NCBI RefSeq assembly: GCF_003790525.1
Contig: NZ_CP033635.1
Origin: Escherichia coli
GTDB taxonomy: Bacteria > Pseudomonadota > Gammaproteobacteria > Enterobacterales > Enterobacteriaceae
Direction: 5' to 3' (one strand)
DNA: 64,000 bases
A program made the position numbers and the translations under genes. The notes below the pieces were generated by a model that was given only the letters and a program-made list of their open reading frames with translations, was not told the DNA's origin and made no database searches. Shown piece after piece: positions 8,133 through 59,394 of this stretch. How positions within the stretch are numbered: the stretch's first letter is position 1; every line of letters begins with the position of its first letter.

Positions 8133-8145
8133 TTAGCTCGTACAA

Positions 8146-8173
8146 GGGAAGTGGCTTGCCACTTCCCTTTTTT
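8146..8173 (+). terminator. cadBA operon rho-independent terminator
   Basis: Stem gggaagtggc / ccacttccc with loop ttg, followed by TTTTTT. Confidence 0.7.
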
Positions 8174-11415: not shown

Positions 11416-11445
11416 GAACGAAGCAGTCAGGCGACTGCTTCGTTC
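11416..11445. terminator. Hairpin between convergent lysU and ghoT (possible bidirectional terminator)
   Basis: 13-bp stem gaacgaagcagtc / gactgcttcgttc with 4-nt loop; no clear U-tract on the plus strand. Confidence 0.4.
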
Positions 11446-11721: not shown

Positions 11722-12018
11722 CTACTTGTAAAACTGACGGAAATAGTCATCAACGGTCATAATGTTGAGGTCAAAATCAATATCCGGTAAGTCTAAGCAT
11801 TTAAGCCTGATTAAATCTTCGATTTCACTTGCGGCTAACGATGTCGTTATTGCGAAGGAATTTTCATTCAATTGTCGTGGTATCCCATATTCATCAGCCA
11901 CGATAGAGGAGAAATTCATATCATACATCAATGATCTTAACCTTAAGAACACTGAGGAATAAGATGATGGATAATCAAAAGAAACAACATAAGTATTGAA
12001 CTTGTTTTTACCTTCCAT
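11722..12018 (-). CDS. ghoS: Type V antitoxin GhoS (sequence-specific endoribonuclease)
   Basis: 98 aa from MEGKNKFNTYVVSFDYPSSY…; immediately upstream of ghoT on the same strand. Confidence 0.85.
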   Translation of the reverse strand: MEGKNKFNTYVVSFDYPSSYSSVFLRLRSLMYDMNFSSIVADEYGIPRQLNENSFAITTSLAASEIEDLIRLKCLDLPDIDFDLNIMTVDDYFRQFYK

Positions 12019-27583: not shown

Positions 27584-28921
27584 ATGTCTTCGGATGCTGA
27601 TGCTCACAAAGTGGGCTTAATCCCCGTCACCCTGATGGTGTCGGGGAATATTATGGGGTCAGGTGTTTTTCTGTTACCTGCAAACCTGGCCTCCACTGGC
27701 GGGATTGCCATTTATGGATGGTTGGTGACGATTATCGGTGCGCTGGGGCTCTCGATGGTATACGCCAAAATGTCGTTCCTCGACCCAAGTCCTGGTGGTT
27801 CTTACGCTTACGCCCGCCGCTGCTTTGGCCCGTTTCTCGGTTATCAAACCAACGTCCTCTACTGGCTGGCCTGCTGGATCGGCAATATCGCCATGGTGGT
27901 CATTGGCGTAGGATATTTAAGTTACTTCTTCCCGATTCTGAAAGATCCACTGGTATTAACCATCACCTGCGTCGTGGTGCTGTGGATCTTCGTCCTGCTG
28001 AACATTGTCGGTCCGAAAATGATCACCCGCGTGCAGGCCGTTGCCACCGTGCTGGCGCTGATCCCCATCGTCGGGATTGCCGTATTTGGCTGGTTCTGGT
28101 TCCGTGGTGAAACCTATATGGCGGCATGGAACGTCAGCGGCCTGGGCACCTTCGGCGCGATTCAAAGTACCCTTAACGTTACGCTGTGGTCGTTCATCGG
28201 TGTGGAAAGTGCCTCCGTTGCCGCAGGTGTGGTGAAAAACCCGAAACGCAACGTCCCTATCGCCACCATTGGTGGGGTATTGATTGCCGCCGTTTGCTAT
28301 GTGCTCTCCACCACCGCGATTATGGGGATGATCCCTAATGCCGCACTGCGCGTTTCTGCCTCGCCATTCGGTGATGCCGCACGGATGGCGTTGGGTGACA
28401 CCGCCGGGGCCATTGTTTCCTTCTGCGCAGCTGCGGGTTGCTTAGGTTCACTGGGCGGCTGGACGTTGCTGGCGGGTCAAACGGCGAAAGCCGCTGCCGA
28501 TGACGGACTGTTCCCACCGATTTTTGCCCGTGTAAATAAAGCGGGCACGCCAGTGGCGGGGCTGATTATCGTCGGTATTTTGATGACCATCTTCCAGCTC
28601 AGTAGCATTTCGCCAAACGCGACTAAAGAGTTCGGTCTGGTGTCTTCCGTGTCGGTCATCTTTACACTGGTGCCATATCTTTACACCTGTGCGGCGTTAC
28701 TGCTGCTCGGCCACGGTCACTTTGGTAAAGCACGCCCGGCATATCTGGCAGTGACTACCATTGCCTTCCTCTACTGCATCTGGGCCGTGGTGGGGTCCGG
28801 GGCGAAAGAGGTTATGTGGTCATTTGTCACCCTAATGGTCATCACCGCCATGTATGCGCTGAATTACAACCGGCTGCATAAAAACCCGTATCCCTTAGAT
28901 GCACCAATAAGCAAAGATTAA
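27584..28921 (+). CDS. adiC: Arginine:agmatine antiporter
   Basis: 445-aa APC-family transporter, paralogous to CadB. Confidence 0.95.
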
Positions 28922-28946
28922 TTCCCCTTAATCAAGCACACATAAA

Positions 28947-28981
28947 AGCCAACCTTAAGAACTTAAGGTTGGCTTAATTTT
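28947..28981 (+). terminator. adiC rho-independent terminator
   Basis: 13-bp stem agccaaccttaag / cttaaggttggct with 2-nt loop, followed by taatttt. Confidence 0.6.
28962..28978 (+). promoter_or_regulatory. PmrA (BasR) box in the eptA promoter
   Basis: CTTAAG-gttgg-CTTAAT: two hexamer half-sites with 5-bp spacing, about 45 bp upstream of the eptA start; overlaps the right arm of the adiC terminator. Confidence 0.55.
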
Positions 28982-29024
28982 GCTTTGCGAGCATATGCGC
29001 ACTTTGTTCGATGGAAACACCGTG

Positions 29025-30668
29025 ATGTTGAAGCGCCTACTAAAAAGACCCTCTTTGAATTTACTCGCCTGGCTATTGTTAGCCGCTTTTTATATCTCTA
29101 TCTGCCTGAATATTGCCTTTTTTAAACAGGTGTTGCAGGCGCTGCCGCTGGACTCGCTGCATAACGTACTGGTTTTCTTGTCGATGCCGGTCGTCGCCTT
29201 CAGCGTGATTAATATTGTCCTGACACTAAGCTCTTTCTTGTGGCTTAATCGACCGCTGGCCTGCCTGTTTATTCTGGTCGGCGCAGCTGCACAATATTTC
29301 ATAATGACTTACGGCATCGTCATCGACCGCTCGATGATTGCCAATATTATTGATACCACTCCGGCAGAAAGTTATGCGTTGATGACACCGCAAATGTTAT
29401 TAACGCTGGGATTCAGCGGCGTGCTTGCTGCGCTGATTGCCTGCTGGATTAAAATCAAACCAGCCACCTCGCGCCTGCGCAGTGTTCTTTTCCGTGGAGC
29501 CAATATTCTGGTTTCTGTACTGCTGATTTTGCTGGTCGCCGCACTGTTTTATAAAGACTACGCCTCGTTGTTTCGCAATAACAAAGAGCTGGTGAAATCC
29601 TTAAGCCCCTCTAACAGCATTGTTGCCAGCTGGTCATGGTACTCCCATCAGCGACTGGCAAATCTGCCGCTGGTGCGAATTGGTGAAGACGCGCACCGCA
29701 ACCCGTTAATGCAGAACGAGACACGTAAAAATTTGACCATCCTGATTGTCGGCGAAACCTCGCGGGCGGAGAACTTCTCCCTCAACGGCTACCCGCGTGA
29801 AACTAACCCGCGGCTGGCAAAAGATAACGTGGTCTATTTTCCTAATACCGCATCTTGCGGCACGGCAACGGCAGTTTCAGTACCGTGCATGTTCTCGGAT
29901 ATGCCGCGTGAGCACTACAAAGAAGAGCTGGCACAGCACCAGGAAGGCGTGCTGGATATCATTCAGCGAGCGGGCATCAACGTGCTGTGGAATGACAACG
30001 ATGGCGGCTGTAAAGGCGTTTGCGATCGCGTACCTCACCAGAACGTCACCGCGCTGAACCTGCCTGGTCAGTGCATCAACGGCGAGTGCTATGATGAAGT
30101 ACTGTTCCACGGGCTGGAAGATTACATCAATAACCTGCAGGGTGATGGCGTGATTGTCTTACACACCATCGGCAGCCACGGCCCGACCTATTACAACCGC
30201 TATCCGCCGCAGTTCAGGAAATTTACCCCAACCTGCGACACTAACGAGATCCAGACCTGTACCCAAGAGCAACTGGTGAACACTTACGACAACACGCTGG
30301 TTTACGTCGACTATATTGTTGATAAAGCGATTAATCTGCTGAAAGAACATCAGGATAAATTTACCACCAGCCTGGTTTATCTTTCTGACCACGGTGAATC
30401 GTTAGGTGAAAATGGCATCTATCTGCACGGTCTGCCTTATGCCATCGCCCCGGATAGCCAAAAACAGGTGCCGATGCTGCTGTGGCTGTCGGAGGATTAT
30501 CAAAAACGGTATCAGGTTGACCAGAACTGCCTGCAAAAACAGGCGCAAACGCAACACTATTCACAAGACAATTTATTCTCAACCTTATTGGGCCTGACTG
30601 GCGTTGAGACGAAGTATTACCAGGCTGCGGATGATATTCTGCAAACTTGCAGGAGAGTGAGTGAATGA
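29025..30668 (+). CDS. eptA: Lipid A phosphoethanolamine transferase
   Basis: 547 aa from [12 protein letters not shown]…; N-terminal transmembrane domain plus periplasmic sulfatase-like domain. Confidence 0.93.
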
Positions 30669-31333
30669 AAATTCTGATTGTTGAAGACGATACGCTGTTA
30701 TTGCAGGGATTGATTCTGGCGGCGCAAACCGAAGGCTACGCGTGCGATGGCGTGACAACCGCGCGGATGGCGGAACAAAGCCTTGAGGCCGGTCATTACA
30801 GCCTGGTGGTACTGGATTTAGGGTTACCCGACGAAGATGGACTGCATTTTCTCGCCCGTATCCGGCAGAAAAAATACACCCTGCCGGTACTGATCCTCAC
30901 CGCTCGCGATACGCTGACCGACAAAATCGCCGGGCTGGATGTCGGTGCCGATGACTATCTGGTGAAGCCTTTTGCGCTGGAAGAGTTACACGCCCGTATC
31001 CGCGCCCTGCTACGACGCCATAATAATCAGGGCGAAAGTGAGCTGATTGTTGGCAATCTGACGCTGAATATGGGTCGCCGTCAGGTATGGATGGGCGGTG
31101 AAGAGTTGATTCTGACGCCCAAAGAATATGCTCTGCTGTCACGGTTAATGCTCAAAGCAGGCAGTCCGGTGCATCGGGAAATTCTCTACAACGACATCTA
31201 TAACTGGGACAATGAACCCTCGACCAACACCCTGGAAGTGCATATCCACAATCTGCGCGACAAAGTGGGCAAAGCCCGTATCCGCACCGTGCGCGGATTT
31301 GGCTATATGCTGGTCGCAAATGAGGAAAACTAA
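30665..31333 (+). CDS. basR: Response regulator BasR (PmrA), OmpR family
   Basis: 222 aa; receiver plus winged-helix domains; 4-bp overlap with eptA. Confidence 0.95.
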
Positions 31334-31342
31334 TTGAATCTG

Positions 31343-32434
31343 ATGCGTTTTCTGCGCCGACCAATATCGCTGCGCCAACGGCTGATATTGACCATCGGGG
31401 CCATTTTGTTGGTGTTTGAGCTGATCAGCGTCTTCTGGCTATGGCATGAAAGTACCGAGCAGATTCAGCTGTTTGAGCAGGCGCTACGCGACAATCGCAA
31501 CAACGATCGCCACATCATGCGTGAGATCCGCGAGGCGGTCGCCAGCCTGATTGTCCCCGGCGTCTTTATGGTCAGCCTGACGCTATTTATCTGCTATCAG
31601 GCGGTACGCCGCATCACCCGCCCGCTGGCGGAGCTGCAAAAAGAGCTGGAAGCGCGCACCGCCGACAACTTAACGCCCATTGCCATTCACAGCGCCACCC
31701 TCGAAATCGAAGCGGTGGTTTCAGCGTTAAACGATCTGGTCAGTCGCCTGACCAGCACGCTGGATAACGAAAGGTTGTTTACCGCTGACGTCGCGCACGA
31801 ACTGCGAACGCCACTGGCGGGGGTGCGTTTGCATCTGGAACTGCTGGCGAAAACGCATCACATTGATGTAGCACCGTTAGTGGCTCGACTTGATCAGATG
31901 ATGGAGAGTGTCTCCCAGCTGCTGCAACTGGCGCGTGCCGGACAGTCATTTTCTTCCGGGAATTATCAACATGTAAAACTGCTGGAAGATGTCATTCTCC
32001 CCTCGTATGACGAACTCAGTACCATGCTCGACCAGCGACAGCAAACCCTGCTATTGCCAGAGAGCGCCGCCGACATCACCGTTCAGGGTGATGCAACCCT
32101 GCTGCGGATGTTATTGCGAAACCTGGTAGAAAACGCCCATCGTTACAGCCCGCAAGGCAGCAACATTATGATTAAGCTGCAAGAAGATGGCGGAGCAGTC
32201 ATGGCCGTTGAAGATGAAGGACCGGGTATTGATGAGAGTAAATGCGGGGAGTTGAGTAAAGCGTTTGTACGTATGGACAGCCGTTATGGCGGGATTGGTC
32301 TGGGGTTAAGTATTGTCAGCCGCATTACACAGTTGCATCACGGGCAGTTTTTCCTGCAAAACCGGCAAGAGACTTCCGGCACGCGGGCCTGGGTACGGCT
32401 GAAGAAAGATCAGTACGTGGTAAACCAGATATAA
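31343..32434 (+). CDS. basS: Sensor histidine kinase BasS (PmrB)
   Basis: 363 aa from MRFLRRPISLRQRL…; transmembrane, HAMP, HisKA and HATPase domains. Confidence 0.93.
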   Translation: MRFLRRPISLRQRLILTIGAILLVFELISVFWLWHESTEQIQLFEQALRDNRNNDRHIMREIREAVASLIVPGVFMVSLTLFICYQAVRRITRPLAELQKELEARTADNLTPIAIHSATLEIEAVVSALNDLVSRLTSTLDNERLFTADVAHELRTPLAGVRLHLELLAKTHHIDVAPLVARLDQMMESVSQLLQLARAGQSFSSGNYQHVKLLEDVILPSYDELSTMLDQRQQTLLLPESAADITVQGDATLLRMLLRNLVENAHRYSPQGSNIMIKLQEDGGAVMAVEDEGPGIDESKCGELSKAFVRMDSRYGGIGLGLSIVSRITQLHHGQFFLQNRQETSGTRAWVRLKKDQYVVNQI

Positions 32435-32499
32435 AGAAAGCTGCTGACCACCAGCACGCTGAACACGGTAGTTAAACTTTCATAAACACGGTTTTTCAT
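32410..32499 (-). CDS. pmrR: 29-aa membrane peptide PmrR, convergent with and overlapping the basS 3' end
   Basis: Below the ORF-track cut-off; the reverse complement reads MKNRVYESLTTVFSVLVVSSFLYIWFTTY*; its last 25 nt overlap the basS coding end. Confidence 0.7.
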   Translation of the reverse strand: MKNRVYESLTTVFSVLVVSSFLYIWFTTY

Positions 32500-32569
32500 T
32501 GCACTCTCCTCCGTTAACCTGGAGGAGAGTATGCGCGTCAGAGATTAAGTGAACCTTAAGAGTTCAATT

Positions 32570-32598
32570 GGCCTGATAAGACAGCGTCACATCAGGCC
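32570..32598. repeat. REP-like palindrome downstream of proP (probable terminator hairpin)
   Basis: ggcctgataag…cacatcaggcc palindrome. Confidence 0.55.
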
Positions 32599-32610
32599 AT
32601 CCGTTTCAGC

Positions 32611-38218: not shown

Positions 38219-38237
38219 TTGTATTGTGATCGGTAAG

Positions 38238-38312
38238 CCGGATAAGGCGCTCGCGCCGCATCCGGCAACGATGCCGACTGCCTGATGCGACGCTGACCGC
38301 GTCTTATCAGGC
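38238..38312. repeat. BIME: two REP elements in inverted orientation
   Basis: gccggataaggcgctcgcgccgcatccggca and gcctgatgcgacgctgaccgcgtcttatcaggc. Confidence 0.8.
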
Positions 38313-38377
38313 TTCCCTCTCATCTGTATAAATTTCGAACTACACTTAACTGGCTTCTCTTAACTGAGGTCACCATC

Positions 38378-59355: not shown

Positions 59356-59394
59356 GCTTTTGGGGGCGCTGAAGCCCCCAAAAGCATTTATTTT
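59356..59394 (+). terminator. yjcS rho-independent terminator
   Basis: 11-bp stem gcttttggggg / cccccaaaagc with 8-nt loop, followed by a T-rich tail. Confidence 0.7.

Follow-up and report, generated by a model that had tools for sequence, protein, structure and literature searches.

A palindrome between adiC and eptA in Escherichia coli contains the PmrA/BasR box of eptA and probably forms the terminator hairpin of adiC

Introduction

In Escherichia coli, 103 bp separate adiC, the gene for the arginine:agmatine antiporter, from eptA, the first gene of eptA-basR-basS, which raises the question whether a single palindrome in this gap can end the adiC transcript and at the same time carry the site through which eptA is activated. 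The genes following eptA encode the regulator that binds this site (BasR, or PmrA) and its sensor kinase (BasS). The promoter upstream of pmrCAB is activated by PmrA, which amounts to positive autoregulation, with co-transcription of the genes from the eptA promoter (PMC3531487), and lipid A modification is acid-responsive (PMC1804205). An initial annotation of the 64,000 nucleotides analysed here (the window) had proposed that the terminator of adiC and the PmrA box of eptA are physically superimposed. Here, we examine this proposal using sequence searches, RNA folding, comparison of eptA loci across species and the published literature.

Results

A perfect palindrome in the adiC-eptA gap

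The stretch tested is 100% identical to E. coli SMS-3-5, where adiC and eptA are annotated beneath the match, and K-12 carries an identical palindrome and box. An eptA start at the in-frame TTG at 28980, as given in the list of open reading frames, was rejected, the annotated ATG being at 29025. The features of the junction, in window coordinates, are the following:

27584-28921, plus strand: adiC coding sequence, stop codon TAA at 28919-28921 (open reading frame list and annotation under the match)
28946-28959, plus strand: left arm, AAGCCAACCTTAAG, which would provide the 5' side of the stem in the proposed adiC terminator
28955-28958, no strand assigned: third TTAA, 8 bp upstream of the TTAA of half-site 1, which falls at about -46 to -43 relative to the predicted eptA start
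28962-28975, plus strand: right arm, CTTAAGGTTGGCTT, which provides the 3' side of the stem and the larger part of the PmrA box
28962-28978, plus strand: PmrA/BasR box CTTAAG-GTTGG-CTTAAT (CTTAAGGTTGGCTTAAT), half-sites at 28962-28967 and 28973-28978, predicted to span -39 to -23
28974-28986, plus strand: T-rich tail TTAATTTTGCTTT, which follows the GC part of the stem and is also the spacer between box and -10 of eptA
28989-28994, plus strand: predicted -10 hexamer of eptA, GAGCAT, 10 nt after the box, conserved as nAnnAT
29001, plus strand: predicted transcription start of eptA (A), 7 nt past the -10 and giving a 24-nt leader, placed by promoter geometry
29025-30668, plus strand: eptA coding sequence, 547 aa (open reading frame list and annotation)
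30665-31333 and 31334-32434, plus strand: basR and basS

The palindrome begins 24 nt past the adiC stop codon and is a perfect inverted repeat with 14-bp arms and 2 nt between them. Its location and sequence had been annotated exactly, but the arms had been given as 13 bp, one pair fewer than the inverted-repeat search finds. It is the longest perfect palindrome in the window, and arms of at least 14 bp arose in none of 100 first-order Markov simulations. As RNA in a 74-nt context, the hairpin folds at -22.1 kcal/mol (z = -4.6), with no shuffled sequence folding as well.

A search of 28700-29200 against Rfam returned no match at the gathering score. The adiC 3' UTR likewise matched no family, and the idea that it contains a known sRNA was rejected on that result. 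A sub-threshold match to STnc630 (pmrR), with 24 bits against a cut-off of 55, starts at the eptA box and reflects promoter architecture common to pmrR and eptA. Other perfect palindromes in the window, with arms of 12-13 bp, lie at 2060-2085, 8144-8169, 11416-11445 and 59356-59385 and are probably intrinsic terminators. The two central bases of the adiC-eptA palindrome (28960-28961; compared over loci L001-L055) are AA in Escherichia and TT in Salmonella and C. amalonaticus; such a switch among adiC-linked species is expected for an unconstrained loop or symmetry centre.

The right arm lies within the PmrA/BasR box of eptA

The right arm and the three bases that follow it make up the box, which ends 46 nt before the eptA ATG and matches YTTAAK-N5-YTTAAK with zero mismatches. 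The window contains two such perfect matches, the other one at 32544-32560 on the minus strand, upstream of the known PmrA target pmrR. Matches with one mismatch number 8, compared to 3.1 expected. One of these, at 11799-11816, overlaps itself and matches on both strands (TTTAAGCCTGATTAAAT); since one-mismatch matches are found only modestly above chance, it is probably not functional.

Verified PmrA boxes of Salmonella read CTTAAG-N5-xTTAAT (PMC3973317), the box lies over the -35 element at pbgP, ugd and pmrCAB (PMC10570014), and the yjdB/pmrC instance contributes to a validated PmrA motif (PMC1525208). Footprinting of the Salmonella pmrC promoter is credited to Wosten and Groisman (1999) in the part of PMC1525208 that cites it. 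Activation of the gene is likewise taken from the literature, where both the PmrA dependence of pmrC/eptA and the autoregulation of pmrCAB are described (PMC8151780, PMC3531487, PMC1525208). The site at 28962-28978 combines the two half-sites, the N5 spacer, the placement over -35, a PmrA-dependent gene downstream and conservation among orthologs, and judged by its sequence it is the already described PmrA/BasR box of eptA (pmrC). The assignment in the initial annotation is borne out by the zero-mismatch match and by eptA being a known PmrA target (PMC3973317, PMC10570014, PMC1525208). Our literature search found neither site-level BasR data at eptA (box, ChIP-exo or genomic SELEX) nor a mapped eptA start site.

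The box had also been said to lie at the right distance from eptA, and this agrees with the promoter geometry, as exactly 10 nt separate it from the conserved nAnnAT hexamer, the same gap as at pmrR. Positions 2 and 5 of the hexamer are invariant (A53 and A56 in alignment A1), its last two columns are invariant within each clade, and T occupies position 6 in those sequences that were inspected visually. The predicted geometry falls within about 2 bp of that described for pbgP. An antisense promoter, reading into adiC from a PmrA box on the minus strand, was also considered and rejected: the second half-site on that strand is CTTTTA in E. coli and varies between species, and no -10-like hexamer is present there at the 10-nt gap.

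For comparison across species we fetched 60 eptA loci, one genome per species, from which 46 distinct Enterobacteriaceae sequences were aligned. The half-site cores are invariant in all 46, and Pantoea and Tatumella have the box too. Counted from the eptA ATG, it is located at -63 in Escherichia, Salmonella and Citrobacter and within 1-2 nt of this position in Klebsiella, Raoultella, Kluyvera, Enterobacter, Pantoea and Tatumella, and the distance stays constant regardless of the upstream gene, be it adiC, a CofD-family gene, DUF2238, or a divergent lplA, vsr or DUF347 gene. Three of the fetched loci (L059, L060 and L024) look like contaminated or mislabelled public assemblies: a 250-nt Comamonadaceae contig and a 230-nt Methylobacterium frigidaeris contig are 100% E. 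coli eptA or adiC-eptA, and a contig labelled Chryseobacterium sp. 18061 has an enterobacterial cofD-eptA locus.

A likely terminator hairpin downstream of adiC

A consensus terminator scan classes the palindrome as terminator-like, with 13 pairs, a loop of 4 and the tail AATTTTGCTT. As in intrinsic terminators, a stable stem-loop with a T-rich run behind it comes shortly after the stop codon of a gene in the same orientation, and an A-rich stretch precedes it. In contrast to the usual form, the stem is unusually long and AT-rich (G-C in 5 of the 13 pairs), the tail UUAAUUUUGCUUU satisfies the scan rule of 5 T in 8 and yet is broken by AA (UUAAUUUU), and the 3' arm and tail of this putative terminator double as activator site and spacer of the next promoter. 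In Escherichia, no other hairpin is found between the adiC stop and eptA, the remaining 3' UTR folding at 0 to -4.8 kcal/mol. From these features we infer that the hairpin is likely to terminate the adiC transcript, and predict its 3' ends to lie at about 28980-28986. None of adiC, eptA and basR is listed in the E. coli Term-seq supplement (PMC7815308), and the literature search found no mapped adiC 3' end.

To estimate conservation along the junction we calculated the mean majority fraction per column, separately for adiC-linked species and for genera in which eptA is linked to cofD. The flank upstream of the left arm reaches 0.43 in the former and 0.47 in the latter, the outer left arm (28946-28953) 0.79 versus 0.54, and the spacer after the box 0.93 versus 0.65, being T-rich in adiC-linked species and A-rich and variable in cofD-linked genera. 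In this alignment, conservation of the outer left arm and of the T-rich spacer is thus confined to adiC-linked species. Complementarity continues through the N5 spacer into half-site 2, none of which a protein half-site would need, and several substitutions in the arms are C-to-U changes that preserve a U.G pair in the plus-strand RNA. Covariation was not relied upon as proof of the hairpin: two pairs are changed on both sides, and 76.9% of cells pair, compared to 74.4% in shuffles, a weak signal because the box holds the right arm fixed. Some loci whose upstream gene is not adiC (L021, L024, L025, L042 and L047) have palindromes of 9-12 bp as well.

These comparisons bear on the possibility that the left arm has no function at all, its symmetry being a relic or a chance extension of the self-complementary half-site, so that the box alone matters. 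We consider this very improbable. The left arm is unchanged across Escherichia species, even though the adjoining 24 nt upstream differ at many positions, and its conservation lies far above that of the flank. Furthermore, 5374 of 5411 complete E. coli genomes (99.3%) share the 60 bp at 28940-28999 without any difference, the surrounding 601 bp being 95-99% identical in most E. coli genomes, and a perfect 14-bp palindrome is unexpected by chance. The weak covariation statistics would fit a functionless arm, as would the weak hairpin of Salmonella and the C. freundii group, which persists there without obvious harm.

The assignment of the palindrome as adiC terminator hence stands in part. The terminator-like scan, the stable fold and the conservation of outer arm and tail together with adiC speak for it; the interrupted U-tract and the AT-rich stem speak against it, and across species the claim is limited by the weakness of the hairpin in Salmonella and many Citrobacter.

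The box hairpin is weak in most lineages that carry a REP-like hairpin

Salmonella and some members of the C. freundii group have a GC-rich REP-like hairpin (-19 to -32 kcal/mol) after adiC, and there the box hairpin reaches only -1.6 to -3.6 kcal/mol; it is weak in most, not all, such lineages. Where no other hairpin is present, as in Escherichia and C. amalonaticus, the box hairpin folds at -13.5 to -20 kcal/mol. The strengths of the two hairpins are inversely related (Spearman -0.79, n = 27), a coefficient that is uncorrected for phylogeny and represents perhaps 5-7 independent lineages.

Salmonella and the Citrobacter freundii group have acquired GC-rich REP-like elements of two types, GCCCGATG...CATCGGGC and GGCCGGAT...ATCCGGCC, in the interval from adiC to the eptA box, and these insertions (L006, L007, L010-L018 and L051-L055) stretch the distance from the adiC stop to the box from about 40 to 68-84 nt. 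The E. coli palindrome resembles REP/BIME elements in being an intergenic palindrome at a gene's 3' end, with REP-like elements at the equivalent position in relatives. However, it is single-copy (median of one place per genome), lacks the GC-rich REP consensus and differs in sequence from the GCCGGATG- or GCCCGATG-type hairpins that Salmonella and Citrobacter carry at this position, and its classification as a REP/BIME element was rejected. Elsewhere in the window, positions 38236-38313 on the plus strand match Rfam naRNA4 (CssrE), a REP-derived nucleoid-associated RNA, with 87.5 bits.

REP-like hairpins are classically known as mRNA stabilisers, and that they functionally replace the box hairpin in other species suggests a further reading, in which the adiC RNA forms the hairpin without terminating at it. 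The structure would then protect the message from exonucleases or give rise to a stable 3' UTR fragment, with release occurring downstream or through Rho. The long AT-rich stem and the imperfect U-tract are in line with such a role, and the 3' UTR of the neighbouring adiA yields the sRNA AdiZ (bioRxiv 10.1101/2025.06.06.658255). Conversely, the T-rich tail is conserved along with the outer arm and passes the terminator scan, the adiC 3' UTR resembles no Rfam family, and transcription left unterminated would read straight through into eptA-basRS. Weighing these points, we regard a hairpin without termination as improbable and continue to favour a terminator.

An invariant third TTAA in the inner left arm

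The inner part of the left arm behaves differently from the outer part. Its TTAA at 28955-28958 (columns 18-21 of alignment A1) is invariant in all 46 distinct Enterobacteriaceae eptA promoter sequences. It is kept in Klebsiella, Raoultella, Kluyvera and Enterobacter, which have an unconserved outer arm, no stable hairpin and an A-rich spacer, and it persists in genera that have neither adiC nor the T-tract. In Pantoea and Tatumella the TTAA is not kept at that offset. Since the inner TTAA is invariant without adiC or a hairpin, part of the palindrome must be conserved for a reason other than termination; on this evidence, a termination-only reading of the palindrome is incomplete, the inner left arm lying outside its reach.

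No genus has the element at its pmrR promoter, and the corresponding position at E. coli arnB is TTAG (oligonucleotide in PMC10729948). A general requirement of PmrA boxes for an upstream TTAA was rejected on these two grounds, and the pattern points instead to a DNA-level role specific to the eptA promoter. The third TTAA might provide an UP-like contact for the RNA polymerase alpha subunit's C-terminal domain, a minor-groove contact for the upstream-shifted DNA-binding domain of PmrA seen by cryo-EM (PMC10570014), or an additional half-site for PmrA or for QseB/PreA.

The last of these options comes close to a reading in which the palindrome is mainly a DNA operator with both arms read by protein, be it PmrA or its paralogue QseB/PreA, bound in either orientation or via a third half-site, or another dimeric regulator. 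The RNA hairpin would in this case be a by-product, and adiC would be terminated otherwise, for example by Rho. Such an operator would account for a TTAA that is invariant in 46 sequences, including genera without a stable hairpin or T-tract. Moreover, PreA/QseB, acting independently of PmrA, activates pmrCAB (PMC2653508), CTTAAG is a self-complementary half-site, and in some Citrobacter (L005, L008 and L017) the minus strand also carries a perfect or near-perfect box. Yet the second half-site on the minus strand is not conserved: E. coli has CTTTTA there and E. albertii CTTATC, neither with the AA contacted by PmrA (PMC10570014), and at a half-site spacing of 8 bp two OmpR-family DNA-binding domains would clash. 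The outer arm, in addition, is conserved only in the adiC-linked clade, along with the T-rich tail, and decays where a REP hairpin is present. Finally, pmrR and arnB function with the box alone, without an upstream TTAA or palindrome (arnB oligonucleotide, PMC10729948). Taken together, this makes an operator read by protein on both arms unlikely in our view.

Discussion

The reading we favour, and hold to be probably correct as a whole, is that one palindrome works at two levels, as DNA box for eptA and as RNA hairpin for adiC. At the DNA level, phosphorylated BasR (PmrA) would bind 28962-28978, its direct-repeat half-sites arranged head to tail and replacing the -35 element, and would recruit sigma-70 RNA polymerase to the weak -10 GAGCAT, so that transcription of eptA-basRS starts near 29001. 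We infer this start position, like that of the adiC 3' ends, from comparison with other promoters and terminators. At the RNA level, the arms would pair in adiC transcripts to a hairpin of 12-14 bp and about -20 kcal/mol, followed by UUAAUUUUGCUUU, and this hairpin would act as intrinsic terminator or 3'-end stabiliser. The adiC RNA would consequently end inside the eptA core promoter, upstream of the -10, while the eptA mRNA would begin downstream of the hairpin and hence be free of it. The inner TTAA of the left arm would add a further DNA-level role at the eptA promoter. As terminator and box act on different molecules, they need not conflict. The physical superposition that motivated this analysis is confirmed for the sequence itself, in that the right arm belongs to the terminator-like hairpin and to the PmrA box alike.

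Comparison with other PmrA-activated promoters (pbgP/arnB, ugd, pmrC/eptA and pmrR) shows the same CTTAAG/xTTAAT direct repeat, with 5 bp between half-sites, over the -35 and followed by a weak -10. The eptA box is nearly identical to those of pmrR (CTTAAGGTTCACTTAAT) and E. coli arnB (CTTAAGGTTAAGTTAAT) (PMC3973317, PMC10570014, PMC10729948). In contrast to the other boxes, only the eptA copy has a conserved TTAA upstream of it; its full complementary arm in Escherichia makes it one half of a hairpin. The closest parallel lies in the same window at the proP-pmrR junction, where the end of the co-oriented gene proP, a hairpin (32570-32598) and a PmrA-dependent promoter (box at 32544-32560) likewise share a short gap. 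There, however, hairpin and box lie side by side with 9 nt between them and do not overlap. This adjacent layout is also seen at the adiC-eptA junction of Salmonella and many Citrobacter.

Our literature search found no paper that treats the adiC terminator together with the eptA box, and for this reason the overlap seems to be undescribed so far. It is a new instance of familiar elements packed together and involves no new mechanism or system. If the terminator shares the bases of the BasR box, transcription of an acid-resistance gene ends within the control region of a resistance operon, which affects the insulation or coupling of two acid-responsive systems. With shared bases, each polymerase transcribing adiC crosses the BasR box before release, which leaves room for interference or read-through; speculatively, coupling could proceed by eviction of BasR, by promoter occlusion or by leaky read-through. 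The adiC gene is induced by acid, anaerobiosis and arginine, and such coupling would link arginine-dependent acid resistance to lipid A modification. That the overlap amounts to a regulatory node, at which adiC induction modulates eptA-basRS and BasRS autoregulation, with the third TTAA as a separate, undescribed promoter element, appears doubtful to us. Otherwise, the arrangement is an ordinary case of signals packed densely into a short intergenic stretch of a bacterial genome, a matter of sequence economy. In practical terms, mutations or constructs of the "adiC terminator" and of the "eptA promoter" in E. coli are not independent if the bases are shared, and with the third TTAA the single PmrA promoter responsible for autoregulation gains a concrete architectural element.

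The neighbouring pmrR locus yielded further observations. It occupies 32403-32568 on the minus strand, with the box at 32544-32560 and the -10 CATACT at 32528-32533, is annotated in K-12 and was recovered as Rfam STnc630 with 183 bits, which served as an internal positive control. In nearly all genera a 10-nt gap separates its box from nAnACT, matching the gap at eptA. The hairpin after the proP stop, GGCCTGAT...ATCAGGCC at 32570-32598, is REP-like and of terminator type and lies 9 nt upstream of the pmrR box. The pmrR open reading frame (32410-32499) overlaps the 3' end of basS on the opposite strand. A leader hairpin, ACUCUCCUCC-N8-GGAGGAGAGU, buries the Shine-Dalgarno sequence just before the pmrR ATG (32499), and its arms co-vary between genera (ACTATCCTC/GAGGATAGT in Klebsiella). 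The primers used in PMC8004244 contain CTTAAGGTTCACTTAAT, the pmrR promoter box (window positions 32434-32610), and the effect described there may therefore involve pmrR rather than, or besides, pmrB mRNA stability.
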